A DNA stretch of 64,000 nucleotides from Candidatus Oxydemutatoraceae bacterium (GTDB lineage Bacteria; Pseudomonadota; Gammaproteobacteria; Poriferisulfidales; Oxydemutatoraceae), in contig OZ244717.1 in assembly GCA_965218975.1 (NCBI GenBank), positions 672,001 through 736,000 of the forward strand. Reading direction: 5' to 3'. Positions 15,852 to 32,900 of this stretch are shown here, one piece after another. Numbering within the stretch: the stretch's first letter is position 1; each line of letters starts with the position of its first letter. Below the pieces are notes generated by a model. It saw nothing but the letters and a program-made list of their open reading frames with translations. It made no database searches and was not told the DNA's origin. The translations under genes were made by a program, and so were the position numbers.

Positions 15852-17214
15852 TATTTTCAAGGCCTATGATATTCGCGGTGTCGTCGGCGAAAACTTCGGC
15901 GAGGAACAGGCGTACACCATCGGTTGCGCGCTCGCACAGCATTATCGTAACAACGCAATTACAGCGGTCGGACGCGACGGCAGGTTATCTAGTCCGGCAA
16001 TCGCCGCTGCTTTGATTCGCGGTTTGAATACTTGCGGTGTGGACACTATTGAAATCGGCGCGGTGCCGACGCCGGTACTATATTTTGCCGCATATCAACA
16101 TGCCGAAGGTTCAGGGCTAATGATCACCGGCAGTCACAATCCGGCGCAGTACAATGGCATTAAAATAATGATATGCGGGCATACTTTGGCAGGAGACGAC
16201 ATGCAAATTCTTTATGAAGTTTGCGCTAATCAAAATTCATTTCCGCGCCCAACCCGACCCGGTGCCAATCAAACACTTGACCTGCTTAACAAATACTTAG
16301 ACCGCATCGTCGCCAATGTTCAACTGCAACGTCCGTTGAAAGTCGCCGTTGATTGCGGCAATGGTATTGCCGGTCCGGCAATGACCGGCATGCTTGATCG
16401 CCTCGGTTGCGAAATGATTCCTTTATACTGCGAAGTGGACGGTAGTTTCCCGAATCATCATCCGAACCCGAGTGTCCCGGAAAATTTAGAAGACCTGATC
16501 CGTACCGTGCAAAAAAACAAATGCGATATCGGCATCGCTCTGGATGGTGATGGTGATCGTTTGGGAGTAGTGGACGATCGCGGACGCGTCATCTGGGCGG
16601 ACCGTCAAATGATGTTGTTCGTAAAGGATATTCTGTCAAGTAACCGTGGCGGCATCGTTATTTATGATGTGAAATCATCGTACCATCTGGAAAAAATCAT
16701 TCGGGAATGCGGTGGCACACCATATATCAGCCGCACCGGACATTCTTTTATTAAAGCCGCATTAAAAGAAACAGGCGCCATATTTGCCGGTGAGATGAGC
16801 GGGCATTTATTTTTTAACGACCGCTGGTTTGGGTTTGACGACGGCGTTTATGCTGCCGCACGTTTTCTTGAACTTTTATCGCGTCAAGACAAACCATGTA
16901 GTGCGCTGTGCGATACATTACCCCAATCGATGCACACGCCGGAGATCAATATTCATTTTGCGCAAGAGAATGCTCAGCATGAATTTATGCAACGCTTTAT
17001 TTCTGCTGCAAGTTTTTCTAATGCAAAAATTAACTTGACAGACGGACTGCGTGCGGAATTTGAGCATGGATGGGGGCTGATTCGTGCTTCAAACACAACT
17101 CCGTGTTTGGTGATTCGTTTTGAAGCGAATAGCAAAACCGAGTTAGAGCAGGTGCAATCGTTGTTTCGTGCGGAATTGTTAAAGGTGAAGCCGACGCTGA
17201 ACATCCCATTCTAA
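15823..17214 (+). CDS. algC: Phosphomannomutase/phosphoglucomutase
   Basis: [31 protein letters not shown]; probable GTG start at 15823. Confidence 0.93.
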
Positions 17215-17241
17215 GCGATATAAAGGCAACTGTTATTTCCG

Positions 17242-18123
17242 ATGATACAAGATGCAAAAAATAGAGTTAGGATCCTGAGTGAGGCACTGCCCTACATTCA
17301 GCGGTTTCACGACAAAGTCATTGTCGTGAAATATGGCGGCAATGCGATGACAGATAGCGATATTAAACGTAGCTTTGCTCGTGATACCGTACTACTCAAG
17401 CAAGTCGGCCTGCATCCGCTCATTGTGCACGGCGGCGGTCCGAGTATTTCAAAAACTTTAACGAAGCATAATATCAACAGCGAGTTTATCCATGGGATTC
17501 GAGTTACCGACAATGCGACAATGGAAGTGGTTGATGAATGCCTTGCGCAAATTAATCGGGAATTGTGCGATACGATTGCTGCGCTTGGCGGTAAAGCAAT
17601 CAGTCTTGCACACGACGGACATCGCATGGTGTATGCACGCAAAATGCGAATCTCCGGTCACCCGGAGGTGGACTTAGGACGCGTCGGCGAGGTCGCAGGA
17701 GTGGATGACAGATTGAAGAAGTTGGCGATTGATTCCGAACAAATTCCGGTGGTATCGCCTGTCGGTGTCGATCAAAATAATCTCATTTATAACGTCAATG
17801 CAGACTTGGCCGCCGCTGGGGTCGCCGCTTTTCTACAAACCGAAAAGTTGATTTTAATGACGAACACACCCGGAGTCATGGATGCCGAAGGCAATTTACT
17901 GGCAACATTGTCAGCGGATGAAACGTGGAAATGGATTGAAAGCGATGTAATACAAGGGGGGATGTTACCGAAAGTGCGGTGCGCTTTTAACGCAGTCAAC
18001 GCAGGCGTACACGCCGCGCATATCATTGACGGGCGCGAACAGCACGCTTTGCTACTAGAGCTTTTGACCGATGCCGGAGTGGGCACTTTGATTGCAAAAG
18101 ACGCCGCGACTAAAACCGGCTAA
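17242..18123 (+). CDS. argB: Acetylglutamate kinase
   Basis: EALPYI, KYGGNAM, VHGGGP, NVNAD, GGMLPK. Confidence 0.97.
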   Translation: MIQDAKNRVRILSEALPYIQRFHDKVIVVKYGGNAMTDSDIKRSFARDTVLLKQVGLHPLIVHGGGPSISKTLTKHNINSEFIHGIRVTDNATMEVVDECLAQINRELCDTIAALGGKAISLAHDGHRMVYARKMRISGHPEVDLGRVGEVAGVDDRLKKLAIDSEQIPVVSPVGVDQNNLIYNVNADLAAAGVAAFLQTEKLILMTNTPGVMDAEGNLLATLSADETWKWIESDVIQGGMLPKVRCAFNAVNAGVHAAHIIDGREQHALLLELLTDAGVGTLIAKDAATKTG

Positions 18124-18758
18124 GCGGCATACTGCGAACGGTACTCCCTTAATACATCCAGCTGTGCGGCATATTGCGGATCATCCCGTATAAATCTGAT
18201 CAAATCGGTAACGTTTGCAATGCTAATGACTCGTAGACAATAAATCTCTTCAATTTCATGCACTGCCGACTGTTGCCCGGCCCCTCTTTCCTGGCGATCA
18301 AAAGCCGTAACGATCGCGACTGCTTGCGCACCGGCTTGCTTAATCAGCGATAAGGCCCCGCGTGCCGCAGTACCCGCTGTAATCACATCATCCACAACGA
18401 CTAACTGCCCGTTCAACGGTGCGCCAAGTATGCATCCGCCTTCGCCGTGATCTTTCACTTCTTTGCGATGAACAGAAAGACATATATTCACATTAAATTT
18501 CTGCTCAAGATAAATCACCGTCGCCGTGGCGATAGGGATGCCTTTATATGCCAACCCGAAAATACCATCAAACTCAATCCCTGCGGCATAGATGGTCTGG
18601 GCATAAAACATGCCTAATTGGCGGAGCGCGACACCGGAGTGCAGCATACCCGCATTGAAAAAATACGGACTGACCCGGCCGGATTTTAGCTTAAATCTAC
18701 CGAACTGCAATGCGCCATGATTGAGTGCAAATTTCAAGAAACGGTGACTGTAAGACAT
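18120..18758 (-). CDS. pyrE: Orotate phosphoribosyltransferase
   Basis: FKLKSGRVSPYFFNAG, AYKGIP, KDHGEGG, VVDDVITAGT; ATG at 18758. Confidence 0.96.
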   Translation of the reverse strand: MSYSHRFLKFALNHGALQFGRFKLKSGRVSPYFFNAGMLHSGVALRQLGMFYAQTIYAAGIEFDGIFGLAYKGIPIATATVIYLEQKFNVNICLSVHRKEVKDHGEGGCILGAPLNGQLVVVDDVITAGTAARGALSLIKQAGAQAVAIVTAFDRQERGAGQQSAVHEIEEIYCLRVISIANVTDLIRFIRDDPQYAAQLDVLREYRSQYAA

Positions 18759-19242
18759 TGGATTTTTATCGAAACTACTAAAACCGGATGGTCGGCTGGC
18801 GATTATCCGCAATTTACTCTACGGTCTAAGTGCGCATACGGCACCGAGCCACATTGGATCTTAAAAGTATATCGCACCCTTACCTAATTGGAAAACACCT
18901 GTACGTGTCCAATACATTCCGGACAAATGAGGCCAGGCAAATAGGGCAGTCGTCGGACAATGACTTGGTACGGAACCATATCGTTTAATCCCCGGTGGAG
19001 GTGCCCGCCGGGGGCGCTCGCCGTTGTAACGTTGCGGGTAATCAATCATCTGCCGGTTAGACTCACCGATGTTTTCAGGCAATCACGCTTCCCGACAAGC
19101 TGTCACTCCTCGTCACCCTTCGTCAAATGCGCTCGGGTACACCCTGGTCCGTAGTTTCTCTCGAAACAGCAAGCCGGTCATTGACCGGCAGGGAACGCCA
19201 TGTGTTGCGGCCGGGCCATGTTTGTCCCGGAATAGCAGGGCT

Positions 19243-20892
19243 TCAAGTTTCTGCCGGGCTTTGGTTCTTATCGTCGTCTCTGTTTTTATTGTATTCTTGA
19301 ATCCATTGCTCGGCCTCTTCCTCGGTGTAACGGCCTGTCACTGCGCGTGAGTCTTGGGGCAATTCATAACTCTCCGGTTGTCCTACATGCTTTTGCAGTC
19401 TCTCCTTGAGGTCTTGAGTACGTTCTTTTTGAGTACGTTCTTTTCCTATGTATCCGGAGACATTTCCGATGATACGCCCCAAACCCTCTTTGCTTAATCC
19501 TCCGGAGAAAACAACGGATGACAAATCCGAGTCCTCACCTATGTGAGACTTAATCTTGTTCTCGAATATGCCAAACGAAAAGCTATCGCAAAACACACCT
19601 TGAAATTGTGCTCCCTCAAGATACGCTCCTTGAAATTGTGCTCCCTGGAGGTTCGCTCCCTGAAATTGTGCTCCCCGGAGGTTCGCTCCCTGAAATTGTG
19701 CTCCCCGGAGATCCGCTCCTTGAAATTGTGCTCTCCGGAGATCCGCTCCTTGAAATTGTGCTCCCTGGAGCTTCGCTCCCTGAAATTGTGCTCCCCGGAG
19801 CTCCGCTCCTTGAAATTGTGCATCCCAGAGATCCGCTCCTTGAAATTGTGCTCCCCGGAGATCCGCTCCTTGAAATTGTGCTCTCCGGAGATCCGCTCCT
19901 TGAAATTGTGCTACCCAGAGCTCCGCTCCTTGAAATTGTGCATCCCAGAGATCCGCTCCTTGAAATTGTGTCCCCCGGAGATCCGCTCCTTGAAATTGTG
20001 TCCCCCGGAGATCCGCTCCTTGAAATTGTGTCCCCCGGAGATCCGCTCCTTGAAATCGGATGCTGTCGTGTAGTGCGACACCTCGAAAATAAGCTTCGGA
20101 CAAGTCCGGTGTCCGGTCTTTCCAGAATTGTTTCAGTGTTTTTTCGGAGTGTATCTTTGTTGTAAACAGCAATTCCAGCAGCGACCGGATTTCGGCAGAG
20201 GGCTTATTCGCATATTCCTCCCGGTATTCTTTTCTGCTCGTGGTCTCGCGAATATGCGCGCATAAGATTTCCGCAATGGATGCACGCAGCCTGTCCTCGT
20301 CCAGGGCAAGGTAAAATAAGGCATAGGCCCCGCCCTGGCGCACAGATACCTGTTCTTTTCCAAGGTGATCTACCGCATCGCGAAAACGCTGCTGACGGTG
20401 ACCCTTCTCTGTTGCTTTGACGACATCGGCCTGAGCTTGGGCGGTCTTGTCCTGGGCTTGGGCGGTCTTGTCCTGGGCTTGGGCGGTCTTGACCTGGGCT
20501 TGAGCGGTCTCGTTCATTGCATCAGCTCTTCGTAAGGCTGCCAGGACTGCCAGTGCGGAAACTAAACCGGCCAGAGCCAACGCCAGGGATTGAATAACAT
20601 CCCGCTTATCTTCTACACCCAGGGAATAACATAAGAACGAGCCAAATTCGAGGCAGTCTTTAGGCACGAAAAACAACGTCAAGATAAGCAGGGCAAAAAC
20701 TATAAAAACGAAAACCAGAATAAGTATTTCTATCCATCGTTCAGGCCAGGCTAAGCGACGCAATCTTTCCCTGTATATGGCCAAGTAGGGCCGAATCTTC
20801 TTCCATGCAGGCCCAGCGAAACCGCGCAATCTTTTCATGCACCTGGTTCGGTAGGACCGAATCTTCTGCCTTAAGTCGGTGAGTTTATTCAT
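19243..20892 (-). CDS. Membrane-anchored pentapeptide-repeat protein, paralog 1 (15 decapeptide units)
   Basis: Two TM helices, AQAQDKT heptads, RFRDAVDHLG...VRQGGAYAL domain, (AQFQG-AxLxx)n; GGAGG RBS. Confidence 0.92.
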   Translation of the reverse strand: MNKLTDLRQKIRSYRTRCMKRLRGFAGPAWKKIRPYLAIYRERLRRLAWPERWIEILILVFVFIVFALLILTLFFVPKDCLEFGSFLCYSLGVEDKRDVIQSLALALAGLVSALAVLAALRRADAMNETAQAQVKTAQAQDKTAQAQDKTAQAQADVVKATEKGHRQQRFRDAVDHLGKEQVSVRQGGAYALFYLALDEDRLRASIAEILCAHIRETTSRKEYREEYANKPSAEIRSLLELLFTTKIHSEKTLKQFWKDRTPDLSEAYFRGVALHDSIRFQGADLRGTQFQGADLRGTQFQGADLRGTQFQGADLWDAQFQGAELWVAQFQGADLRRAQFQGADLRGAQFQGADLWDAQFQGAELRGAQFQGAKLQGAQFQGADLRRAQFQGADLRGAQFQGANLRGAQFQGANLQGAQFQGAYLEGAQFQGVFCDSFSFGIFENKIKSHIGEDSDLSSVVFSGGLSKEGLGRIIGNVSGYIGKERTQKERTQDLKERLQKHVGQPESYELPQDSRAVTGRYTEEEAEQWIQEYNKNRDDDKNQSPAET

Positions 20893-21063
20893 CTTTACAC
20901 CTCCGGCGCGAGAACAGACGTCTTTGTTCTCGATGCCGTAAACATCAGTGATGTTTCCGCAGAAAAAATCCTGCAGAAAATCTCTGCGGGCTGAAAGAAA
21001 CGAGGCGTAGGCCTCAAATTGAAAATCAAGCGGTGCGGATGTTCAGGGTAACGCAAGACGTAA

Positions 21064-21282
21064 TTAAAGCCGGCTCATGCCGGCAAAAGCAGTGATCGGC
21101 GCTGTCACAACCAGAATTACCGAGATCGCCAGGCTAACAAACCAGGTTTTACCTGAATTGATCCTGTCGCAGATATTCTTTACCTCGGCATCAATGTGGG
21201 TACGCAGCCCTTTTACCTCGGTATCAATCTTCTTATCAAGAGCCTGTAGCTGCTGATAGATTGTCTCTAGTGTAACTTCCAT
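21064..21282 (-). CDS. Small coiled-coil protein with C-terminal TM anchor (CCDC90/DUF1640-like)
   Basis: Heptad pattern then hydrophobic WFVSLAISVILVVTAPITAF; AAGGAA RBS; conserved duplicate at 24011. Confidence 0.7.
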   Translation of the reverse strand: MEVTLETIYQQLQALDKKIDTEVKGLRTHIDAEVKNICDRINSGKTWFVSLAISVILVVTAPITAFAGMSRL

Positions 21283-21485
21283 AAATTTTTCCTTATCGGT
21301 GCAAGATCAGCACAAGGGAATCCCTCACGAGCCCCTTCCCTGCAAACGAGTAAAAAGGCAAGGCACGCACCTTACAGGCTTAAAAGCAGAGTAAAGGGAA
21401 GGCGGCAGGTTTGTCAAATCAGTGCATCGATCCAAAACACCCATTTCGTGTAGATGCAGTCTGTGACGGATCGTTCCGCGCATCC

Positions 21486-21707
21486 TCATGTTTGCAGTCT
21501 CGTTATCAAACTAACCGCGGCAATGATGATGCCGGCAATGATAGTCTGGGCATAAAACATGCCTAATTGGCGGAGCGCGACACCGGAGTGCAGCATACCC
21601 GCATTGAAAAAATACGGACTGACCCGGCCGGATTTTAGCTTAAATCTACCGAACTGCAATGCGCCATGATTAAGTGCAAATTTCAAGAAACGGTGACTGT
21701 AAGACAT
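21486..21707 (-). pseudogene. Chimeric pyrE 5' fragment fused to the TM tail of a DUF1640-like gene (duplication junction)
   Basis: MSYSHRF...FYAQT identical to PyrE, then IIAGIIIAAVSLITRLQT identical to the tail at 24433-24490. Confidence 0.88.
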
Positions 21708-22180
21708 TGGATTTTTATCGAAACTACTAAAACCGGATGGTCGGCTGGCGATTATCCGCAATTTACTCTACGGTCTAAGTGCGCATACGGCACCGAGCCA
21801 CATTGGATCTTAAAAGTATATCGCACCCTTACCTAATTGGAAAACACCTGTACGTGTCCAATACATTCCGGACAAATGAGGCCAGGCAAATAGGGCAGTC
21901 GTCGGACAATGACTTGGTACGGAACCATATCGTTTAATCCCCGGTGGAGGTGCCCGCCGGGGTGCTCGCCGTTGTAACGTTGCGGGTAATCAATCATCTG
22001 CCGGTTAGACTCACCGATGTTTTCAGGCAATCACGCTTCCCGACAAGCTGCCACTCTTCGTCAAATGCGCTTGGGTACACCCTGGTCCGTAGTTTCTCCC
22101 GAAACAGCAAGCCGGTCATTGACCGGCAGGGAACGCCATGTGTTGCGGCCGGGCCATGTTTGTCCCGGAATAGCAGGGCT

Positions 22181-23839
22181 TCAAGTTTCTGCCGGGCTTC
22201 GGTTCTTATCGTCGTCTCTGTTTCTGTTGTATTCTTGAATCCATTGCTCGGCCTCTTCCTCGGTGTAACGGCCTGTCACTGCGCGTGAGTCTTGGGGCAA
22301 TTCATGACTCTCCGGTTGTCCTACATGCTTTTGCAGTCTCTCCTTGAGGTCTTGAGTACGTTCTTTTCCTATGTATCCGGAGACATTTCCGATGATACGC
22401 TCCACATCCTCTTCGCTTAATCCGCCGGAAAAAACAACGCGTGACAAATCCGAGTCCTTGCCTATGTGAGACCTAATCCTGGCATGGAATGCGCCAATCG
22501 AACCGCCATCGCAAAACACACCTCGGAATTGTGCTACCTCGAGATCCGCTTCTTGAAATTGTGCTCCCCCGAGCTCCGCTCCTTGAAATTGTGCTCCCCC
22601 GAGATCCGCTCCTTGGAATTTTGCTTCCAGGAGATTCGCTCCTTGAAATTTTGCTTCCCAGAGCTTCGCTCCTTGAAATTGTGCTCCCCTGAGATACGCT
22701 CCTTGAAATTGTGCATCCTCGAGCTTCGCTCCTTGGAATTGCGCTTCCCAGAGCCTCACTACTCCTTGAAATCGTGCTCCCCTGAGCTCTGCTCCTTGAA
22801 ATTGTGCTCTCCGGAGATCCGCTCCTTGAAATTGTGCTACCCAGAGCTCCGCTCCTTGAAATTGTGCATCCCAGAGATCCGCTCCTTGAAATTGTGTCCC
22901 CCGGAGATCCGCTCCTTGAAATTGTGTCCCCCGGAGATCCGCTCCTTGAAATTGTGTCCCCCGGAGATCCGCTCCTTGAAATCGGATGCTGTCGTGTAGT
23001 GCGACACCTCGAAAATAAGCTTCGGACAAGTCCGGTGTCCGGTCTTTCCAGAATTGTTTCAGTGTTTTTTCGGAGTGTATCTTTGTTGTAAACAGCAATT
23101 CCAGCAGCGACCGGATTTCGGCAGAGGGCTTATTCGCATATTCCTCCTGGTATTCTTTTCTGCTCGTGGTCTCGCGAATATGCGCGCATAAGATTTCCGC
23201 AATGGATGCACGCAGCCTGTCCTCGTCCAGGGCAAGGTAAAATAAGGCATAGGCCCCGCCCTGGCGCACAGATACCTGTTCTTTTCCAAGGTGATCTACC
23301 GCATCGCGAAAACGCTGCTGACGGTGACCCTTCTCTGTTGCTTTGACGACATCGGCCTGAGCTTGGGCGGTCTTGTCCTGGGCTTGGGCGGTCTTGTCCT
23401 GGGCTTGGGCGGTCTTGTCCTGGGCTTGGGCGGTCTTGACCTGGGCTTGAGCGGTCTCGTTCATTGCATCAGCTCTTCGTAAGGCTGCCAGGACTGCCAG
23501 TGCGGAAACTAAACCGGCCAGAGCCAACGCCAGGGATTGAATAACATCCCGCTTATCTTCTACACCCAGGGAATAACATAAGAACGAGCCAAATTCGAGG
23601 CAGTCTTTAGGCACGAAAAACAACGTCAAGATAAGCAGGGCAAAAACTATAAAAACGAAAACCAGAATAAGTATTTCTATCCATCGTTCAGGCCAGGCTA
23701 AGAGACGCAATCTTTCCCTGTATATGGCCAAGTAGGGCCGAATCTTCTTCCATGCAGGCCCAGCGAAACCGCGCAATCTTTTCATGCACCTGGTTCGGTA
23801 GGACCGAATCTTCTGCCTTAAGTCGGTGAGTTTATTCAT
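22181..23839 (-). CDS. Membrane-anchored pentapeptide-repeat protein, paralog 2 (15 decapeptide units)
   Basis: Near-identical to paralog 1 except the distal repeats/cap and one extra AQAQDKT heptad. Confidence 0.92.
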   Translation of the reverse strand: MNKLTDLRQKIRSYRTRCMKRLRGFAGPAWKKIRPYLAIYRERLRLLAWPERWIEILILVFVFIVFALLILTLFFVPKDCLEFGSFLCYSLGVEDKRDVIQSLALALAGLVSALAVLAALRRADAMNETAQAQVKTAQAQDKTAQAQDKTAQAQDKTAQAQADVVKATEKGHRQQRFRDAVDHLGKEQVSVRQGGAYALFYLALDEDRLRASIAEILCAHIRETTSRKEYQEEYANKPSAEIRSLLELLFTTKIHSEKTLKQFWKDRTPDLSEAYFRGVALHDSIRFQGADLRGTQFQGADLRGTQFQGADLRGTQFQGADLWDAQFQGAELWVAQFQGADLRRAQFQGAELRGARFQGVVRLWEAQFQGAKLEDAQFQGAYLRGAQFQGAKLWEAKFQGANLLEAKFQGADLGGAQFQGAELGGAQFQEADLEVAQFRGVFCDGGSIGAFHARIRSHIGKDSDLSRVVFSGGLSEEDVERIIGNVSGYIGKERTQDLKERLQKHVGQPESHELPQDSRAVTGRYTEEEAEQWIQEYNRNRDDDKNRSPAET

Positions 23840-24010
23840 CTTTACACCTCCGGCGCGAGAACAGACGTCTTTGTTCTCGATGCCGTAAACATCAGTGATG
23901 TTTCCGCAGAAAAAATCCTGCAGAAAATCTCTGCGGGCTGAAAGAAACGAGGCGTAGGCCTCAAATTGAAAATCAAGCGGTGCGGATGTTCAGGGTAACG
24001 CAAGACGTAA

Positions 24011-24229
24011 TTAAAGCCGGCTCATGCCGGCAAAAGCAGTGATCGGCGCTGTCACAACCAGAATTACCGAGATCGCCAAGCTGACAAACCAGGTTTTGCC
24101 TGAATCGATCCTGTCGCAGATATTCTTTACTTCGGTACCAATGTGGGCACGCAGCCCTTTTACCTCGGTATCAATCTTCTTATCAAGAGCCTGTAGCTGC
24201 TGATAGATTATTTCTAGTGTAACTTCCAT
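24011..24229 (-). CDS. Small coiled-coil/TM protein, duplicate of 21064-21282
   Basis: 72 aa, differs at a few residues from the 21064 copy. Confidence 0.7.
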   Translation of the reverse strand: MEVTLEIIYQQLQALDKKIDTEVKGLRAHIGTEVKNICDRIDSGKTWFVSLAISVILVVTAPITAFAGMSRL

Positions 24230-24432
24230 AAATTTTTCCTTATCAGTGCAAGATCAGCACAAGGGAACCCCTCACGAGCCCCTTCCCTGCAAACGAGTAA
24301 AAAGGCAAGGCACGCACCTTACAGGCTTAAAAGCAGAGTAAAGGGAAGGCGGCAGGTTTGTCAAATCAGTGCATCGATCCAAAACACCCGTTTCGTGCAG
24401 CTGCAATTTGTGACGGATCGTTCCGCGCATCC

Positions 24433-24620
24433 TCATGTTTGCAGTCTCGTTATCAAACTAACCGCGGCAATAATGATGCCGGCAATGATAGTCATCCGCC
24501 AGGTGAGCCCGGCTTCCAGCCAGGCTAACTCGGTTTTAAGTTCAGCTTTTAGCTCAGTCAGACCCGCCTTGGTTGCAGCATTATTTCAATTCGCCGCGAC
24601 CGGCTGCATTTCGTTGGACT
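24433..24620 (-). pseudogene. DUF1640/CCDC90-like gene remnant
   Basis: ...AAN*NNAATKAGLTELKAELKTELAWLEAGLTWRMTIIAGIIIAAVSLITRLQT*; in-frame stop; 5' end lost next to the IS. Confidence 0.7.
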
Positions 24621-24659
24621 GATCACGAGACCAAGCAAGAAGTATATCTACATTTTCAC

Positions 24660-26573
24660 TCTTGACTTCGTAGGTTTTGACCTTTGGGCAAAAAATAAAT
24701 CCTTTATTATCATAGGGTTACCCGGACGCTGCCGAAAAACCCTATTGTAGTGCCCTCAGGCTTGTTTTATCTTGGATTTTGGGTTATCATTCGGGTCTAT
24801 GTACTTGCGTGAAAAATATGATCCCGAACGTGGCCGCACTCGCTTGCAGATCGTGCGTTCCGTGCGCACTGCCGATGGTCCCCGTCAGCGTGTGGTGCGG
24901 CATATCGGCACTGCCGACAGTCCCGAGCAGCTTGCATCTTTGCGCAAGCTCGGCGAGGTCACCTTGGAAGAGCTGCGCCAAGCCGGTACAGCACAACAGT
25001 CGCTGTTCACACCGAAGCAGTACGCGGATCTCGCAGCTGAGGCACGGCGCGCACCACGGCTGGCGCGCTTCGGGGTAGATCTTGCCGAATGCCGTGAGGA
25101 GATGCGGCTGATGCTTGGGGTGCGCGAGGCGTTCACGCAGATTTATTCGCACTTGGGTTGGAACCAGGTGTTGGGGGCGCGGCGCACAGTAGCGAACCGC
25201 ATCCTGCGCGAGCTGGTACTGGCGCGTATCGCGCAGCCGCAGAGCAAGCGCGCTACGGTGTGCGAGCTCGAACGAAGCGGCGTTTCGCTCAATCTCGACC
25301 GGGTTTACCAGACTATGGACCACCTTGAGGAGGCGGTGATTGCGCGCATCCGGGAACAGTCTCATCAGGCGGCACAGAAGTTGTATGATCAGCCCCTCAA
25401 GGTGTTCTTCTTTGATTGCACGACCCTGTACTTTAAGAGCGAGCAAGAGGACCCGTTGCGCGCGAAAGGTTATAGTAAGGACGGCAAGCCGCACCGCTGC
25501 CAGGTGTTACTGGCACTGATGACGACCTGCGACGGTCTGCCGGTGGACTACGCACTGTTGCCGGGCAACACCTTTGAGGGTAAAACCTTGATGCAGGCAG
25601 TGACAAGTCTGCAACAGAGACATCCGGGTGCTGTATTTACAGTAGTGGCCGATGCGGCGATGCTGAGCCGTGAGAACCAGACATTCCTGCAGGAGCAGGG
25701 CTTGGCCTATGTGCTCGGCTATCGTCTCAAGTCGGCCCCGGTCAAGATCAAGCTGCAGGCCCTCAGTGCAGCAGACGATCAAGGCTGGCTCAAAACGCAA
25801 GACCTGCGTTACCGGATGATTCGCCACGAAGGTCGGCAAATCATAGTCACCTATTCGCGCCGGCGCGCGCGCAAGGACCAAGAAGTTCGGGAACGCATAT
25901 TGGCACAGTTGCGCCGGAAGTATCAACGCAGCGAGCGCCCGGCAGGTTTCGTGGCGCGCGGCTATGCCTGTTACTTAAGCTTCCCCGCAAAGGGCCGGGT
26001 TAAGATTGATGCAGCCAAGGTGGCCGATGCGGCGCGTTGGGACGGCCTGCGCGCAATCATCGCACACGGCAACGAGGAGATGGCGCCAAAGGAATTGCTG
26101 TCGCAGTACCGTCGGTTGTGGGAAGTAGAACATTGCTTTCGCACCAACAAGCATGACCTTTGCATCCGCCCGATCTTTCACTGGAAGCCACGGCGTATCC
26201 AGGCACACATTGCGATCTGCTACATGGCCTTCTGCTGTTTGCAGCAGCTGCGCCGGCGGCTTAAGGCACTGGGCTTCCCGATGAGCGCGGAACGAATCCG
26301 GCGCGAGCTCGACACCTTGCAGTTGAGCATCTTGGTATGTACCGACACACAGAAGCGGTATGCGATGCCGAGCCGCGCGAGTGCGGACGCCAATAGGATC
26401 TACCGTAGTGTCGGCCTGAAATGGAACGAAGCTCCGTTCCCGCTTCCCGACAAGTCACGCCCTGGGGGAAGCTGAGCGCGGAGGACTACAAACAACACCG
26501 TAATGTAGTGCCCTTAAGAATCCTGAAGGCAATAATATCAATCACTTACGAGACAAAACCTACGAAGTCAAGA
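24660..26573 (+). mobile_element. IS1634-family insertion sequence
   Basis: 20-bp terminal inverted repeats tcttgacttcgtaggttttg / caaaacctacgaagtcaaga; no target duplication visible. Confidence 0.88.
24799..26475 (+). CDS. IS1634-family DDE transposase
   Basis: FFDCTTLYF, GYSKDGK, VVADAAM, YRRLWEVEHCFRTNKHDLCIRPIFHW, AHIAICYMA; ATG at 24799. Confidence 0.92.
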   Translation: MYLREKYDPERGRTRLQIVRSVRTADGPRQRVVRHIGTADSPEQLASLRKLGEVTLEELRQAGTAQQSLFTPKQYADLAAEARRAPRLARFGVDLAECREEMRLMLGVREAFTQIYSHLGWNQVLGARRTVANRILRELVLARIAQPQSKRATVCELERSGVSLNLDRVYQTMDHLEEAVIARIREQSHQAAQKLYDQPLKVFFFDCTTLYFKSEQEDPLRAKGYSKDGKPHRCQVLLALMTTCDGLPVDYALLPGNTFEGKTLMQAVTSLQQRHPGAVFTVVADAAMLSRENQTFLQEQGLAYVLGYRLKSAPVKIKLQALSAADDQGWLKTQDLRYRMIRHEGRQIIVTYSRRRARKDQEVRERILAQLRRKYQRSERPAGFVARGYACYLSFPAKGRVKIDAAKVADAARWDGLRAIIAHGNEEMAPKELLSQYRRLWEVEHCFRTNKHDLCIRPIFHWKPRRIQAHIAICYMAFCCLQQLRRRLKALGFPMSAERIRRELDTLQLSILVCTDTQKRYAMPSRASADANRIYRSVGLKWNEAPFPLPDKSRPGGS

Positions 26574-26823
26574 TACCCCGCGATGCCCCAGCGCATAAGT
26601 TCAGAAACATCATCATCGCCGGTGTTATCATTGACTGCAGCCATTGATCCGGCTCTCTGGGCATCCCGCCTCGCGGACGAGCACCGGTACGGGAACAATG
26701 TCGCCAATCTGGAGGCCAGTGATCCCTGGTATCCTCTGAAATCCGCGTTTCAACCGCTACCCAAGGAACGCCGTGAGTCGGTACCGGCGGCGTAGAAACC
26801 GGTCCGATCAAGCATTTCCATCT

Positions 26824-27123
26824 TTAACCTTTATAAGATTTCTCTTGCAGTCCTAGTAGCTTATTTATGTTTTTCATCTCGGTGTCTAGTCGCTGATTTA
26901 TACCTTTTATATCGCCTTTTATCGCTTCGTTGCCTACTAATATCTTAGTAATATTCTCATTAATGCTACCGAGAGTATTTGTTAAATCCTCTATATTCTT
27001 TTTATTGTTTTCCGCCTCTTTCTTAGTTTCCGCCAGCGTAATCCCTCCCCATCCCAGGGAGGTAAGAAGTGCTGCCAACAAAACCCCTATAATCGTCTCA
27101 GATGTATACTTTGGAATGTTCAT
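26824..27123 (-). CDS. Small protein, N-terminal TM plus coiled coil, AT-rich
   Basis: IIGVLLAALLTSLGWGGI then heptad-rich region. Confidence 0.65.
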   Translation of the reverse strand: MNIPKYTSETIIGVLLAALLTSLGWGGITLAETKKEAENNKKNIEDLTNTLGSINENITKILVGNEAIKGDIKGINQRLDTEMKNINKLLGLQEKSYKG

Positions 27124-27183
27124 AAAAGCATTGTATCACAAACATATTTTGGTTTTAGTGGCTTTGTACGATGTCACCCTAGA

Positions 27184-27465
27184 GGGTGAGACGCGCCCGG
27201 AAAACCGAACGGTTTTCAGCGGCGAACGACCCGACAAGGACGTCGGGGCTGGGGCTTGTTGACAGAACCCAGTCGCGTCATGGGTGAGCCGCGCCCGGAA
27301 AACCAATTGGTTTTCAGCGGCGAACGACCCGACAAGGACGTCGGGGCTGGGGTTCATTAACAGCACAAAGTCTCGTCACGGATGACATGTACTTTGCTAA
27401 TAATCCGGCACAATCCTCCGACAACCACCAACAAACAAAAACCCGCCACCAAACACAAAACGGTC
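27184..27465. repeat. Element C, inverted orientation (two X modules plus degenerate Y module)
   Basis: gggtgagacgcgcccggaaaacc...ggggcttgttgacagaacccagtcgcgtca is the reverse complement of the 5563/40269 copies. Confidence 0.88.
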
Positions 27466-27578
27466 CCAAATATTCCTGAGCTTATGCATTGCGTGCGTAA
27501 GCGTTGTAAACTCTTGCATGATATTCCCTAAAATAGGTTTTGTATCTCAATAACAACAACCATAAGCGGTGACCAATC

Positions 27579-28685
27579 ATGACAACCAAAGAACTAAGCG
27601 ACGACCTAGAACGAATCTTGAAACTCAATCCACCAGTAAAAAGGGCGGCATACAGTGATCGGATCGCATGGTTAATGGCGATATTCTCCGAGCTTGCCTA
27701 CACACGGTTCGATGAAGAAAACCAAGATTCCTTAATGAGTTTAGCTACCGAACTTGCAGCAATGACCGACGAGAAGAGTATTGCTCAAAAATTACGCACT
27801 TTGTCAAGTTTAGTACCTACCGAAGCCGATGCCGGTAATAAGATACTTCGATCCGTATTGGCTATTGGTGAGTTTGAATTGAAATGTGTGCTGAATAACT
27901 CGGGTACTGACACGCAAGGATTTATTGCCGTTCGAAAATCTGATGATGGCACAGGAATGGTCGTCTTGAGTTTCCGAGGCACGCAACAGATTAAGGATTG
28001 GATGACTAATTTACGTGTCGATAAGATTCCTATTAAGAAGACAGACCGGTCGGGCACTACAACTGTAGGAAATGTTCATAAAGGTTTTCATAAAGCGTTC
28101 GAATCAGTTGAAAGACAGATTCAAGATTGTCTAAACAATTGTGGTGATTTGCCAATTTACATCACCGGTCACTCTTTGGGGGGCGCTTTGGCCGTTCTTG
28201 CAACATGGTTCATCTCGGGTGAAAAGCTGGCTGCTTGCTACACATTCGGAGCGCCCAGAGTCGGCGACGAAAAGTTAATGAATCGCTTTTATACCCCCAT
28301 TTATCGCATCGTGAACGGCGCCGACCCGGTCCCTTTCGTGCCCCCGTCGGGAAAAATCATAGGACCCCTAAAGGCCATCGTGCGAGCTATTGGTGTGGTT
28401 ATCACCCCAATGGATGTATTGACGAATATGTTGGTCAAGTCCCAGGGATATCGTCATTATGGGTTCCAGCGTTACCTCTCAATCTGTGAAAAAGGAATAT
28501 CTGGAACATATCCGGGTCTTAGGAATGAGTACGGCATAGGAAGTGTTGAAAGACTATGGCGCTACGTTGGACGATTAGTACGGGGTGAAATCAAAGAACA
28601 AAAACGAATAGACAAGTACCACGATATTTCTATTTATCGCGATAAACTTAGAGCATTCGCTATCAAGAGACAAAATCAGAAGTGA
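27579..28685 (+). CDS. Lipase class 3 family protein
   Basis: SFRGT, VHKGF, ITGHSLGGALA, YTFGAPRVG, DPVPFVP. Confidence 0.9.
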   Translation: MTTKELSDDLERILKLNPPVKRAAYSDRIAWLMAIFSELAYTRFDEENQDSLMSLATELAAMTDEKSIAQKLRTLSSLVPTEADAGNKILRSVLAIGEFELKCVLNNSGTDTQGFIAVRKSDDGTGMVVLSFRGTQQIKDWMTNLRVDKIPIKKTDRSGTTTVGNVHKGFHKAFESVERQIQDCLNNCGDLPIYITGHSLGGALAVLATWFISGEKLAACYTFGAPRVGDEKLMNRFYTPIYRIVNGADPVPFVPPSGKIIGPLKAIVRAIGVVITPMDVLTNMLVKSQGYRHYGFQRYLSICEKGISGTYPGLRNEYGIGSVERLWRYVGRLVRGEIKEQKRIDKYHDISIYRDKLRAFAIKRQNQK

Positions 28686-29423
28686 CCAGCATTGATGGTG
28701 GTGGTGCTCCTTCAAGAATGTAACATCCTCGCGGCATCGTGTGAAGTGGAGGGAACCATCTGCCAAGCCGGTGGATATTCACCGGTGTTTGCGTTCAACG
28801 TGGGGATATTGACTGCAAGGATAGACGATATCTGTCTTTGAGTATGCCCACTCACGCATAGGGCAGACATTAAAATAGATTACACAGATTGAGGTGGAAC
28901 AACGCAAGTTGATCTGGCATCGTGCTGCGCGTCAGCGGTGGAAAACAATCTACTGGAAGCCGGGCTGCGGCCGGACAACCGCATGACGTAAATGGAATGT
29001 GACACCGGCTAAAATTGCCGGTCACCTGAGCGCGTTAGAGCATAGCGTTAGGGCATAACTAACATTACGATATTGGTTATTGTGCGTGTCCAATACATTC
29101 CGGACAAATGAGGCCCGGGTAAATAGAGCGGCTGCCGGGCAATGACTTGGCACGGAACCATATCGTTTAATCCCCGGTGGAGGTGCCCGCCGGGGTGCTC
29201 GCCGTTGTAACGTTGCGGGTAATCAATCATCTGCCGGTTAGACTCATTGATGTTTTCAAGTAATTGCGCTTCCCGGCAGGCTGTTACTCTTCGTCACCCT
29301 TCGTCAAATGTGCTCGGGTACACCCTGGTCCGTAGTTTCTCTCGAAACAGCAAGCCGATCACCGATCGGCAGGGAATACCATGTGTTGCGGCCGGAACAT
29401 GTTTGTCCCGGAATAGCAGAGCT

Positions 29424-30809
29424 TCAAATTTCTGCCGGGCTTCGGTTCTTATCGTCGTCTCTGTTTTTATTGTATTCTTGAATCCATTGCTCGGCCTTTT
29501 CCTTTTTGTAATGGCCTGTCTCTGCGCCTGAGTCTTCGGGCAATTCATGACCCTCCGGTGATCCTACATGCTTTTCCAGTTTCTCCTTGAGGTCTTGAGC
29601 ATATTCTTTTCCTATGTATTCGGAGATACTTCCGATGATACGTTCCACACCCTCTTCGCTTAATCCGCCGGAAAAAACAACGGATGACAAATCCGAGTCC
29701 TCGCCTATGCGAGACTTAATCCTGTCCTCGAATGTTTGAGACAGATGCTCACCGCAAAACACACCTTGGAATTGTGCTCTCTCGAGATTCGCTCCTTGAA
29801 ATTGTGCTCCCTCAAGATACGCTCCCTGAAATTGTGCTACCCGAAGATCCGCTCCTTGAAATTGTGCTCCCTTAAGATCCGCTCCTTGAAATTGTGCTAC
29901 CCAGAGCTCCGCTCCTTGAAATTGTGCTCCCCAGAGCTTCGCTCCTTGAAATTGTGCTACCCGAAGATCCGCTCCTTGAAATTGTGCTCCCCAGAGCTTC
30001 GCTCCTTGAAATTGTGCTTCCCGGAGATCCGCTCCTTGAAATCGGGCGCCGCCATACGGTGTGACATCCAGTGCGACACCTCGAAAATAAGCTTCGGACA
30101 AGTCCGGTGTCAGGTCTTTCCAGAATTGTTTCAGTGTTTTTTCGGAGTGTATCTTTATTGTAAACAGCAATTCCAGCAGCGACCGGATTTCGATAGATGG
30201 CTTATTCGCATATTCCTCCCGGTATGCTGCTTCTGTACTCGTGGTCCCACGAATGTGTGCGCATAAGATTTCCGCAATGGATGCACGCAACCTTTCCTCG
30301 TCTAGGGCAAGGTAAAATAAGGCATAGGCCCCGCCGTGGCGTACAGATACATGTTCTTTTCCAAGGTGATCTACCGCATCGCGAAAACGCTGCTGACGGT
30401 GACCCTTCTCTGTTGCTTTGACGACATCGGCCTGAGCTTGGGCGGTCTTGTCCTGGGCTTGGGCGGTCTCGACCTGGGCTTGAGCGGTCTTGTTTAGTGC
30501 GGTGGCTCTTCGTAAGGCCGCCAGGACTGCCAGTGCGGAAACTAAACCGGCCAGAGCCAACGCCAGGGATTGAATAACATCCCGCTTATCTTCTACACCC
30601 AGGGAATAACATAAGAACGAGCCAAATTCGAGGCAGTCTTTAGGCACAAAAAACAACGTCAAGATAAGCAGTAGTAAAACTATCAAAACTAAAACCAGAA
30701 TAAGTATTTCTATCCATCGTTCAGGCCCACCGAGGAGACCGCGCAATCTTTTCATGCACCTGGTTCGGTAGGACCGAATCTTCTGCCTTAGGTCGGTGAG
30801 TTTATTCAT
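29424..30809 (-). CDS. Membrane-anchored pentapeptide-repeat protein, paralog 3 (9 decapeptide units)
   Basis: Same architecture as paralogs 1/2, shorter N-terminus; downstream ~340 bp also homologous. Confidence 0.92.
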   Translation of the reverse strand: MNKLTDLRQKIRSYRTRCMKRLRGLLGGPERWIEILILVLVLIVLLLLILTLFFVPKDCLEFGSFLCYSLGVEDKRDVIQSLALALAGLVSALAVLAALRRATALNKTAQAQVETAQAQDKTAQAQADVVKATEKGHRQQRFRDAVDHLGKEHVSVRHGGAYALFYLALDEERLRASIAEILCAHIRGTTSTEAAYREEYANKPSIEIRSLLELLFTIKIHSEKTLKQFWKDLTPDLSEAYFRGVALDVTPYGGARFQGADLREAQFQGAKLWGAQFQGADLRVAQFQGAKLWGAQFQGAELWVAQFQGADLKGAQFQGADLRVAQFQGAYLEGAQFQGANLERAQFQGVFCGEHLSQTFEDRIKSRIGEDSDLSSVVFSGGLSEEGVERIIGSISEYIGKEYAQDLKEKLEKHVGSPEGHELPEDSGAETGHYKKEKAEQWIQEYNKNRDDDKNRSPAEI

Positions 30810-30810
30810 C

Positions 30811-30920
30811 TTTGAAGCAAAATTGGCTCATATAGAAACCTTTGATGCGGTGGCCGATGTGCTGATATTGCATATCGGTCACCTTTTCGAGTCGTGCCGT
30901 GAGTCCCATATGTATCCGGC
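30811..30920. repeat. Dispersed hairpin element A
   Basis: tttgaagcaaaattggctcatatagaaacctttgatgc-ggtggccgatgtgc-tgatatt-gcatatcggtcacc-tttt...; ends 1 nt from the ATG of paralog 3. Confidence 0.9.
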
Positions 30921-30978
30921 GACCGAACCACGCTCGTTGCAATCCTGTTCGGTGTTCAAGCAGCAAAAATAATGAGAC

Positions 30979-31170
30979 TTAACCGGTAAATCGCAGAGCG
31001 AGAAACAAGATCGTGTTGAGAACTCCAACCACAATAAAACAGATTTGCCAAACATCAGCCTTCGTCACAACATCATCAGTGTGCGCAAACATATCAGCAA
31101 CAGATTTGGCTTGTTCATCGCTGACATTTGGAATCTTCTTTAAGATTTCGTATAACTCAATTGTACTCAT
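30979..31170 (-). CDS. Small DUF1640/CCDC90-like membrane-anchored protein
   Basis: Head (ELYEILKKIPNVSDEQAKSVAD), VTKAD neck motif, C-terminal TM. Confidence 0.7.
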   Translation of the reverse strand: MSTIELYEILKKIPNVSDEQAKSVADMFAHTDDVVTKADVWQICFIVVGVLNTILFLALRFTG

Positions 31171-31174
31171 GGTT

Positions 31175-31522
31175 TTATTTTTGTTGTTCTTGCTCTTCTT
31201 TTCTTTGTTGCTTTTGTTCTTCTTTCTCTAATTCTTCAAGTTGCTCAGCTTGTCTTTTATTAACTGTGCCTTTTTCCCCTTGTCGTATCAATCCTTTAAT
31301 TCCTTCGATTATCTCATTACCAAACCTCTCAAGCTGCCTACCTAAATCCTTCATTCGGTCCCACATAGATTTGTCTTTCTGATCTTTTACGTCTTCTTTG
31401 GAAGCTTCAGAGCCACCGCTACCATACTCCTCTCCTGCGGTCACCGCATCCTTTTGTGCAGACGTAGTAAAAGGGGTAATAACTAGTAAAATCGAAAAAA
31501 TCAAAATACAAGTTTTAGTCAT
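31175..31522 (-). CDS. Small secreted helical protein with Q/E-rich tail
   Basis: Signal peptide (TSA|QK), amphipathic helix, charged tail. Confidence 0.65.
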   Translation of the reverse strand: MTKTCILIFSILLVITPFTTSAQKDAVTAGEEYGSGGSEASKEDVKDQKDKSMWDRMKDLGRQLERFGNEIIEGIKGLIRQGEKGTVNKRQAEQLEELEKEEQKQQRKEEQEQQK

Positions 31523-31807
31523 AATGACCGCTAGTATAGCATGTCCCTATTTTCCCCTTGATCAACGCGCCGTAGGCGCAAAGTCTGTTCCGGTTTCTCA
31601 TAATGTATAGGTCCATAACATTTGGCACGAGCCTTCGCGGCCCTCTCAGCCGACGAGCAAAGCGCCGAATTAGAAGGGATTAGGATACCTTCGCCTTCCG
31701 AATCGTCGCGCTACGGGCGAGTTTCGCTGCCGATTTTGCCTCGGAGAAGTGGAAACGGACGAAAACGCCGCGGGGCAGAGGGGCAGGCAACTCAAAGCCC
31801 GGACACG

Positions 31808-31834
31808 GAAAAGCCGCCCGAAGGCGGCTTTCTC
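31808..31834 (-). terminator. Terminator hairpin after ORF 31860-32084
   Basis: aaagccgcc-ttcg-ggcggctttt on the minus strand. Confidence 0.75.
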
Positions 31835-31859
31835 ACGGGCCGGTCGGTAAAGGGCGAAA

Positions 31860-32084
31860 TTATTGATGCAGGGTAAGCACGGTAGAATAAACACCGATGA
31901 TGCTTGCAATCGTCACGATTGCACCGACGAAGATACCTATGACCCACTGAATCGTGGTGATTTTTACCGCGGCAATCTCGAGCTTCAGAGCATGCAGGCC
32001 TTTCTCGAGCTCTTTTTCGAGCTTATGCTGTCCTCTTTCGAGGTTCAGCAATCGCCGGTCGACGTCTTCAAGCGTTATTTCCAT
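31860..32084 (-). CDS. Small coiled-coil protein with C-terminal TM anchor
   Basis: MEITLEDVDRRL...LKLEIAAVKITTIQWVIGIFVGAIV; resembles the 21064/24011 proteins. Confidence 0.7.
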   Translation of the reverse strand: MEITLEDVDRRLLNLERGQHKLEKELEKGLHALKLEIAAVKITTIQWVIGIFVGAIVTIASIIGVYSTVLTLHQ

Positions 32085-32097
32085 AATAGTCTCTATT

Positions 32098-32207
32098 TTT
32101 GAAGCAAAATTGGCTCATACAGAAACCTTTGATGCGGTGGCCGATGTGCTGATATTGCATATCGGTTACCTTTTTGAGTCGTGCCGTGAATCCCACATGT
32201 ATCTGGC
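32098..32207. repeat. Dispersed hairpin element A, joined to a truncated third MEVTL-type gene
   Basis: Matches the 30811 copy; 32210-32259 reads MGVTLETIYQQLQAL on the minus strand and runs into A. Confidence 0.88.
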
Positions 32208-32450
32208 ACTGTACAGAGCCTGTAGCTGTTGATAGATTGTCTCTAATGTAACTCCCATAAATTTTTCCTTATCAGTGCAAGGGAACTTCTCACGGGTCTC
32301 CTCCCCGCAAACGAGTAAAAAGGCAAGGCACGCACCTTACAGGCTTAAAAGCAGAGTAAAGGGAAGGCGGCAGGTTTGTCAAATCAGTGTATAGGTCCAA
32401 AGCACCCATTTCGTGTAGATGCAGTCTGTGACGGATCGTTCCGCGTATCC

Positions 32451-32620
32451 TCACGTTTGCAGTCTCGTTATCAAACTAACCGCGGCAATGATGATGCCGG
32501 TAATGATAATCATCCGCTAGGTGAGCCCGGCTTCCAGCTTGACTAACTCAGTTTTAAGTTCAGCTTTTAGCTCGGTCAGACTCGCTTTGGTTGCAACATC
32601 ATTTACGTGCGCAACTGAAT
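32451..32620 (-). pseudogene. DUF1640/CCDC90-like gene remnant
   Basis: DSVAHVNDVATKASLTELKAELKTELVKLEAGLT*RMIIITGIIIAAVSLITRLQT; TGG->TAG relative to the 24433 copy. Confidence 0.72.
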
Positions 32621-32900
32621 CCGCGGTGCTTTGCCGCGGTCATGCAAGGCACCGGACCCAGTGCGGCGATAACGCCGGCGCCAGCGACAAAGTGCTGCGA
32701 CCGACCTTGAATGCGTTCGGGGGTTACAACCCTCCCAAAATGAGGGCATCGTGTTTCTGTTGAAGCTTAGAGCGCTCATGAGCTTCCATTTTGAAGCAAA
32801 ATTGGCTTATATAGAAACCTTTGATGCGGTGGCCGATGTGCTGATATTGCATGTCGGTCACCTTTTTATTGACGTCCAAGAATTCAGTATGTATCCGGAC
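32620..32900. repeat. Extended element A (~280 bp); inverted copy at 39897-40180
   Basis: atggaagctcatgagcgctctaagcttcaacag...gcattcaaggtcggtcgcag shared in opposite orientation. Confidence 0.88.

Follow-up and report, generated by a model that had tools for sequence, protein, structure and literature searches.

Paralogs A, B, and C are three genes in a 64,000-nucleotide (nt) stretch of the genome of a Candidatus Oxydemutatoraceae bacterium (assembly GCA_965218975.1, contig OZ244717.1, positions 672,001 to 736,000 of the forward strand), which we call the window. They encode membrane-anchored pentapeptide-repeat proteins from a large, uncharacterized family that spreads by horizontal transfer; all three are intact solo copies that arose by recent amplification. 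Within the limits stated below, each protein joins a constant, anchoring half to a rapidly changing distal half, and in about a third of the sampled loci from other genomes translation of the repeat gene is coupled to that of a Type III restriction-modification operon. We hold tentatively, at a little short of an even chance, that A, B, and C are cytoplasmic, membrane-tethered recognition proteins involved in conflict with phages or mobile elements. Although pentapeptide-repeat proteins are very common, only a handful of them have a known function. This family couples the pentapeptide fold to a membrane anchor, a split into constant and fast-evolving parts, tandem paralogs, and coupling to a Type III operon; the window itself contributes the selection analysis, the argument on topology, and a divergent patch that separates A from B.

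Architecture and predicted fold

Paralog A (positions 19243-20892, minus strand, 549 residues) consists of a basic N-terminal tail, a transmembrane (TM) hairpin, a heptad stalk, a helical domain, a beta-helix of 15 decapeptide units, and a C-terminal domain. Paralogs B (22181-23839, minus strand, 552 residues) and C (29424-30809, minus strand, 461 residues) share 92 and 84% protein identity with A, respectively, and C has 21 N-terminal residues and ca. six repeat units fewer than A. The public gene call for C (P0004) starts 18 codons downstream of the start used here. All three open reading frames (ORFs) are uninterrupted. Tandem Repeats Finder delimited the 30-nt arrays, one decapeptide per unit, at 19598-20056 in A (15.3 copies), 22527-22982 in B (15.1 copies, one unit having 11 residues), and 29764-30042 in C (9.3 copies), and the 21-nt arrays of the stalk heptad AQAQDKT at 20430-20510 in A (3.9 copies), 23356-23457 in B (4.9 copies), and 30431-30493 in C (3.0 copies), all on the minus strand. 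By hydropathy, the hairpin of A (20533-20727, minus strand) comprises TM1 (residues 56-74), a 27-residue loop with two cysteines, and TM2 (residues 102-120). An earlier reading of this DNA, made from the letters and their ORFs (the sequence-only reading), had described 30-nt units in numbers of 15, 15, and 9, two TM helices, and a stalk of variable length; the ORFs and the repeat finder bear out the units and their counts, and the two hydrophobic segments and the 3.0 to 4.9 heptad copies agree with the rest. The helical domain of A (20077-20421, minus strand, residues 158-272) is the constant module of the family, and its C-terminal domain (19273-19587, minus strand, residues 436-540) has no recognized fold.

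We modeled A with AlphaFold2 from a 64-sequence alignment, obtaining a mean predicted local distance difference test (pLDDT) score of 88.4, with values of 96 to 98 over repeat residues 270 to 430. From the N terminus onward, the model shows a very basic helical tail, two hydrophobic helices, and one continuous helix (residues 96-177) containing TM2 and the heptads; after the stalk come a helical domain (182-256), a regular beta-solenoid, and a small helix-rich C-terminal domain. Along the solenoid, the DSSP pattern 'EEE--E----' recurs every ten residues. VIA Z was 24.1 to 4yfo (root mean square deviation 2.6, 215 residues aligned), 21.3 to 2j8k, and 19.3 to EfsQnr, and Foldseek E values against solved pentapeptide-repeat proteins ranged from 1e-13 to 1e-10. 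The repeats of A are predicted with high confidence to form a right-handed quadrilateral pentapeptide beta-helix. In this fold, of the Rfr and MfpA type, four pentapeptides make up one coil, so that with a 10-residue period the AQFQG pentapeptides would occupy two opposite faces and the AxLxx pentapeptides the other two. The predicted fold in this way supports the two invariant and two variable opposite faces of the sequence-only reading, the mapping being taken from the register of the repeats and not from measured geometry. We propose that the conserved Q/G pentapeptides either stabilize the solenoid or form self-association faces.

The same right-handed quadrilateral beta-helix, built of A(D/N)LXX-type pentapeptides, is found in the canonical pentapeptide-repeat proteins Np275/276 (2j8k), HetL (3du1), Rfr23 (2o6w), and alr5209 (6omx) and in designed beta1 solenoids (4yfo). 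However, canonical members are soluble proteins of ca. 100 to 240 residues, whereas in the window the helix has the TM hairpin, stalk, and helical domain before it and the C-terminal domain after it. The window proteins also differ from them in that every second pentapeptide is a near-constant AQFQG, giving the 10-residue period. Pfam PF00805 (Pentapeptide) matched A, B, and C with 190.4, 160.5, and 96.3 bits (E values of 2.4e-57, 5.7e-48, and 7e-28; gathering cut-off of 20.2 bits). PF25296 (Decapeptide repeat region, cut-off of 45 bits), a match precomputed for many homologues, was exceeded by A (74.0 bits), narrowly missed by B (44.6), and missed by C (34.9). For the helical domain, a PDB profile search gave as best match an alpha-Rep (HEAT-like) design at an E value of 0.38, and ESM Atlas features gave no more than a lead to other pentapeptide-repeat clusters (0.90 to 0.92). 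A PDB sequence profile search with the C-terminal domain returned nothing below an E value of 0.075; modeled separately, this domain reached a pLDDT of 77.6 and a best VIA Z of only 5.1, and no fold was assigned to it.

Variable positions, selection, and the divergent patch

Placed in register, the three arrays gave 38 units (15 from A, 14 from B, and 9 from C; the aberrant 11-residue unit of B is uncounted). F3, Q4, A6, and L8 were invariant in all of them and G5 was present in 37, with near-single codon use at constant positions (TTT in 36/38, GCG in 37/38, and CTC in 33/38). Entropy reached 1.92, 2.11, and 1.87 bits at positions 7, 9, and 10 and stayed between 0 and 0.91 bits at the remaining ones. 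Since variation is clustered in positions 7, 9, and 10 and codons are nearly single elsewhere, it is, by entropy and by codon use, neither even over the unit nor mostly synonymous, two of the patterns that the sequence-only reading had set against its own claim of a fixed scaffold with variable, outward-pointing positions. That claim is borne out, with three variable positions per decapeptide.

The same pattern extends through the family. In 1333 units from 95 proteins, called with constraints on positions 1, 3 to 6, and 8 and with positions 2, 7, 9, and 10 left free, entropy was 3.3 to 4.1 bits at positions 7, 9, and 10 and below 0.75 bits at positions 3, 6, and 8, and in the alternate pentapeptide Q4 was conserved at 68% and G5 at 64%. 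Positions 7, 9, and 10 correspond to the i-1, i+1, and i+2 positions, which vary in any pentapeptide-repeat protein; the unusual feature is the conserved alternate pentapeptide rather than the variability of these three sites. Tryptophan occupies position 9 in 9 of the 38 window units, and family-wide it is enriched about six-fold at this exposed position (5.9% versus 1.0% in the flanking domains), an enrichment that we infer to be typical of interaction surfaces.

We estimated the ratio of non-synonymous to synonymous substitution rates (dN/dS, omega) from Nei-Gojobori counts. Between A and B, the variable repeat codons had 28.8 non-synonymous and 3.2 synonymous differences (omega 2.83), the scaffold repeat codons 6 and 9 (omega 0.20), the C-terminal domain 22 and 4 (omega 1.5), and the N-terminal 276 codons 2 and 0. 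We pooled six unsaturated tandem-paralog pairs, namely the A-C pair of the window and five pairs of other genomes, and obtained an omega of 1.69 at the variable repeat codons (one-sided Fisher p = 0.0018) and of 1.48 in the C-terminal domain (one-sided Fisher p = 0.010), compared with 0.39 in the N-terminal helical domain and 0.38 at scaffold codons. The scaffold residues (A1, F/L3, Q4, G5, A6, and L8) are under purifying selection. A dN/dS comparison had been suggested along with the sequence-only reading as a check on it, and its outcome is in line with that reading: non-synonymous changes cluster in the variable codons, where omega is at or above 1. For 20 pairs of paralogs that share a locus (14 loci in all), with global identities lowered by length differences, the helical domain was better conserved than the C-terminal domain in 16 and better than the repeats in 18.

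A and B belong to a tandem duplication of a unit of ca. 2.94 kb, whose two copies lie side by side at about 18584-21532 and 21533-24480 (boundaries approximate). Each copy carries a pentapeptide-repeat gene, an upstream ORF of 72 residues, and the 5' part of pyrE. A truncated 5' copy of pyrE (a 91-residue ORF at 21486-21761, minus strand) is a by-product of this event, the intact gene being located at 18120-18812. When A and B are compared, mismatches amount to 0 to 1 per 100 nt except in one patch of 451 nt (19414-19864 in A and 22351-22790 in B, minus strand), where they rise to 13 to 18 per 100 nt. The patch spans the later repeat array (from about codon 343) and the first ca. 60 residues of the C-terminal domain, the most divergent module thus reaching past the repeats. 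Inside it, identity falls to 82 to 87% and all three paralogs are about equally distant; outside it, A and B are 98 to 100% identical to each other and 89 to 94% identical to C. Whichever two paralogs are compared, no other segment diverges as much. Possibly it was imported by recombination, or it was the sole tract to escape homogenization, and either history makes it the module where the copies are kept different. A and B provide a clean natural experiment, as near-identical copies that differ in a patch over the presumed specificity module. Tandem duplication, gain and loss of units, and this patch are the sources of variation in the window.

These data could also arise neutrally, if the proteins were ordinary membrane-associated scaffolds with unconstrained exposed positions, the duplicates were redundant and drifting, and the patch were a chance gene-conversion tract. 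We judge this unlikely, although several results agree with it. The variable positions are the canonical ones of the fold, and in several pairs omega is near or slightly above 1 on small counts (0.89 to 1.6 at variable codons and, in some, 1.08 to 1.4 in the C-terminal domain), which relaxed constraint after duplication can produce as well; the variable codons may also seem more different than they are where non-orthologous units were paired. Three older, saturated pairs even show purifying selection on the C-terminal domain (omega 0.22 to 0.29), and the window copies lie in a duplicated segment beside an insertion sequence (IS) element. Drift would not lead us to expect, however, a pooled omega above 1, nominally significant, in two separate regions of which one is outside the repeats, or a gradient from a conserved N-terminal to a divergent C-terminal part in 16 to 18 of 20 paralog pairs across 14 loci. 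The retention of three open frames with strongly conserved scaffold codons, the enrichment of exposed tryptophan, and a patch that is the most divergent segment in all comparisons and not in A-B alone likewise speak against drift.

Membrane orientation and the origin of the variation

A carries 17 Lys or Arg in the 55 residues before TM1, only three in the Cys-containing loop of 27 residues, and an RR pair right after TM2, and it has no signal peptide. According to the positive-inside rule, membrane proteins keep their positively charged segments on the cytoplasmic side. By this distribution of Lys and Arg around the hairpin, both termini and the whole repeat domain are probably cytoplasmic, with the short loop alone in the periplasm. 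Two hydrophobic segments forming a hairpin were present in 84 of the 97 family proteins examined, and the charge bias is weaker family-wide than in the window proteins.

The sequence-only reading had seen in these genes an outward-facing, diversified receptor family comparable to the repeats of variable lymphocyte receptors (VLRs) or transcription activator-like effectors (TALEs), and had recommended topology prediction as a check. The fixed scaffold with variable exposed positions, the variable number of units (9 to 15) and length of stalk, and an omega at or above 1 at variable codons are what such a family would display. Nevertheless, we regard it as highly improbable. The repeat domain is predicted to be cytoplasmic, so that a surface-exposed receptor does not fit the distribution of charges or the missing signal peptide, and the signs of programmed diversification are absent. 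Substitutions between A and B form a symmetric spectrum, with for instance 16 G>A and 15 A>G changes. The genome, 99.4% complete, contained no match to the reverse transcriptase family PF00078 in a search that gave matches in control genomes. The two results together exclude a diversity-generating retroelement or hypermutation. No pairs of inverted repeats of at least 60 nt occur in 17000-33000, and no donor cassettes or inversions were found around the genes.

Public sequencing runs were compared as well. Seven runs matched the window, with no RNA run among those listed, and four of the seven, from one study, contained 66 to 78% of the sampled words. Contigs identical to the A and B alleles were present in three to four runs belonging to a single study. 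All 29 in-gene variant letters checked (of 40 shown, with 83 further) match paralog C and represent cross-mapping. These population data consist of short assembled contigs, and joints of the A and B arrays with sides of only 20 to 22 letters are uncounted. The likeness to lamprey VLRs, TALEs, and leucine-rich repeat (LRR) immune receptors is one of design: a fixed scaffold, few exposed variable residues per repeat, a variable number of repeats, and signs of diversifying selection. In contrast to them, the window proteins have another fold, their repeat domain is probably cytoplasmic, neither somatic assembly nor hypermutation nor a system of cassettes was found, and diversity comes through germline paralogs.

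The wider family and its link to Type III restriction

In a clustered protein database, 1268 of 8000 scored candidates matched, most of them covering 80 to 95% of the query. A profile of the helical domain run against 1.84 billion cluster representatives found 237 at E values of ≤1e-30 and 9959 at ≤0.001, with the domain usually beginning near residue 100, just behind a hairpin. Two hidden Markov models (HMMs) built from homologues matched 97 of 97 (N-terminal domain) and 95 of 97 (C-terminal domain) family proteins, and scored 158 to 169 bits and 116 to 126 bits, respectively, in A, B, and C. Among species-representative genomes, 169 loci were confirmed, of which the best-scoring 80 were taken and 79 kept; tandem paralogs (two to four copies) were present in 19 of 77 loci. 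Coverage of at least 80% of A was reached by none of 438 phage and none of 2521 plasmid records, whose matches were limited to the repeats or to the helical domain plus repeats. All 17 NCBIfam matches of A remained below their cut-offs. Searches on pentapeptide repeats and PF25296, in papers without their supplements, found none that describes the family or its link to Type III restriction; such genes might be mentioned in the supplementary neighborhood tables of PMC7159879 and PMC10853773.

An N6_N4 DNA methylase (the Type III modification subunit, Mod, of ca. 513 residues) followed the repeat gene directly, on the same strand and within 800 nt, in 31 of the 79 loci, a fraction that is no population estimate because the set includes mutual relatives. 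A ResIII helicase-nuclease (ca. 880 residues) was in the fetched flank of 24 of these 31. A full-length methylase was present in 27 pairs; in 18 of these the stop codon of the repeat gene overlapped the methylase start by one base, and in 24 the spacing was -13 to +3 nt. In alignments from 26 loci, the coupled methylases are 61 to 86% identical across phyla and the repeat proteins 50 to 70%, which indicates recent transfer between phyla with a faster-evolving first gene. Large WD40-repeat proteins (779 to 1093 residues) were encoded immediately downstream on the opposite strand in L040, L045 (7362-10169), L064, L076, and L083, and members of this WD40 cluster were present in eight fetched loci.

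In the phylogeny (FastTree, two non-repeat domains, 92 members, midpoint root, support values uninspected), the 30 restriction-linked members were scattered through the main clade. These relatives have the domain order, the helical and C-terminal domains, the decapeptide pattern, and the tendency to tandem paralogs in common with the window proteins, and they head mod-res operons, whereas the window copies have no such neighbor. A, B, and C are surrounded by pyrE, an IS1634 transposase, and a lipase, and none of 13 Mod-like matches in the genome falls inside the window. The closest homologue, L025 (51% identity, also from Oxydemutatoraceae), adjoins an IS1595 transposase accompanied by a DNA methylase, a fragment of a Type I S subunit, and a DUF6602 gene (L025 1929-5262). 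None of eight window neighbors was found in L025, L007, L022, L008, or L021.

The genome of the window does encode a pair of mod (574 residues) and res (902 residues), homologous to those that follow repeat genes in other genomes, in another locus (L108, ca. 1.590-1.606 Mb). This is a defense island in which an SMC/AAA-like ATPase of 772 residues precedes mod-res and an AbiEi/AbiEii pair and an SNF2 helicase flank it. A fourth, distant pentapeptide-repeat gene of the same genome (L109 5414-6763, ca. 1.873 Mb; 449 residues, 37% identity over the repeats) begins 4 nt ahead of the mutS stop codon and adjoins an IS1634-type ORF of 567 residues, the same length as in the window.

Coupling to a methylase raises the possibility of a DNA mimic. 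Qnr, MfpA, and AlbG have the fold of the window proteins (VIA Z of 18.4 to 19.3) and are a precedent for a pentapeptide helix that binds a DNA enzyme. By analogy, the beta-helix would bind the Type III Mod or Res protein in the relatives and tether or restrain it at the membrane, and the window copies would act in trans on the genome's own Type III enzymes. The overlap with mod in 18 of 27 pairs and the mod-res homologues elsewhere in this genome are compatible with that, and yet we find it doubtful. Qnr and MfpA have a DNA-like, strongly acidic surface, whereas the repeat domains of the membrane-anchored window proteins are near neutral (net charges of -2, -5, and -1 in A, B, and C; family median +1, range -18 to +16, counted as net charge only). 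Moreover, a conserved enzyme partner would not explain a surface that evolves faster than the methylase beside it. Membership in the Qnr (69.6 versus 240 bits) or MfpA (61.9 versus 360 bits) families is rejected by NCBIfam scores far below the cut-offs.

By record title, the 79 loci come from at least ten higher taxa, in which the family was found in metagenome-assembled genomes (MAGs). The titles name Latescibacterota (24), Nitrospirales/Nitrospira (14), Binatia (11), Alphaproteobacteria (8), unclassified 'bacterium' (7), Gammaproteobacteria (4), Dehalococcoidia (2), and Gemmatimonadota (2), with one locus each from Oxydemutatoraceae, Limisphaerales, Entotheonella, Acidobacteria, Vicinamibacterales, Versatilivorator, and a MAG labeled Enterobacteriaceae. 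Sponge microbiomes include taxa seen among these titles (Latescibacterota, Binatia, Nitrospirales, Entotheonella, Dehalococcoidia, Gemmatimonadota, Acidobacteria, and Oxydemutatoraceae), a match by name in which the habitat of the records is unchecked. A symbiosis factor shared by the bacteria of one animal-associated community and acting on the host, in the manner of ankyrin or TPR 'eukaryote-like' proteins, would suit such a distribution, and PMC11685487 names Oxydemutator as a sponge symbiont; WD40 proteins adjoin the gene in several fetched loci. Such a factor would need release or exposure, though, and the predicted topology is cytoplasmic, without signal peptide, while the genes that share its operon in relatives encode cytoplasmic DNA enzymes. 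No paper was found on pentapeptide repeats among the host-interaction proteins of sponge symbionts, and we consider a role of this kind very unlikely. The type III secreted effectors PipB2 and PipB were rejected as relatives by NCBIfam scores (69.6 versus 354 and 57.9 versus 274); the name 'PipB2' on homologue P0006 is an automatic label.

Recognition at the inner membrane face is the reading that we tentatively favor. The basic tail, the two-helix hairpin, the Ala-rich heptad stalk, and the helical domain would form an anchoring and oligomerizing, perhaps signaling, module, and the distal decapeptide beta-helix together with the C-terminal domain would offer a protein-recognition surface. Specificity would reside in three exposed residues per alternate pentapeptide in the distal coils and in the adjoining C-terminal domain. 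The putative targets are phage or mobile-element proteins, recognized or responded to at the inner face of the membrane, and A, B, and C would constitute a small repertoire of three different specificities acting without an adjacent restriction enzyme. It is the coupling to Type III operons in about a third of the sampled loci that suggests a role in defense. If the variable faces are a recognition surface, the family would add a new type of component, accessory or sensor, to restriction-based defense and would show a modular beta-solenoid binding scaffold occurring in nature.

Besides the selection results set out above under neutral divergence and the relatedness of the sampled loci, several points weigh against this reading. 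No methylase or restriction gene stands beside A, B, or C, and in the tree these form, with L025, itself a solo copy, a clade apart from all 30 restriction-linked members, so that the restriction link is one by family and is not shown for the window clade. PADLOC gave no match for A, nor any for the lipase or two small ORFs of the window. The topology is predicted from charge only.

A more ambitious version, which we think improbable, sees in the whole family a germline-encoded repertoire of intracellular sensors resembling immune receptors. Three positively selected contact residues per decapeptide, with the C-terminal domain, would recognize phage or mobile-element proteins where DNA enters the cell; the protein would then recruit or license the adjacent Type III enzyme, or, in solo copies, act via its hairpin, and the cassette would have spread horizontally across at least ten phyla belonging to a single kind of microbial community.

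Two known membrane proteins invite comparison. HglK of Anabaena is a membrane protein with C-terminal pentapeptide repeats and resembles the window proteins in joining an integral-membrane anchor to a long repeat domain, but it differs in how many membrane segments it has and is not known to show decapeptide alternation. In the Hailong anti-phage system, the membrane effector HalA has an N-terminal TM part and a cytoplasmic, ligand-sensing extension (Tan et al. 2025, as reported in PMC13434031). That arrangement makes it an analogy in the way of working only; membership is rejected at 16.9 versus 250 bits (NCBIfam NF051894), and in Pfam scans of the window neighbors no HalB-type ORF stood out, although no search was aimed at HalB.

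The 72-residue ORF of the duplicated unit lies 171 nt upstream of A (21064-21282, minus strand) and has a coiled-coil-like N-terminal part and a C-terminal hydrophobic segment. Its second copy, upstream of B (24020-24229, minus strand), is 93% identical to the first. With tblastn it was found neither upstream of C nor in the other fetched loci, and it may be a lineage-specific partner or not a gene. Between B and C lie the IS1634-family transposase (24772-26475, plus strand) and, beside this element, a class-3 lipase (27579-28685; Pfam Lipase_3, E value of 3.3e-30).

A 98-nt unit forms 2.1 tandem copies at 27184-27385 and is found again at 5565-5759 and 40270-42697; over the 2.08-Mb genome it has 97 matches of 83 to 100% identity, often in arrays. 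Farther along the window, at 43939-47147 and 49372-52880, two sets of ORFs with equal lengths (162, 218, and 180 residues) lie ca. 5.4 to 5.5 kb apart. The two ORFs scanned from the first set had no Pfam match, and the equal lengths suggest another segmental duplication.

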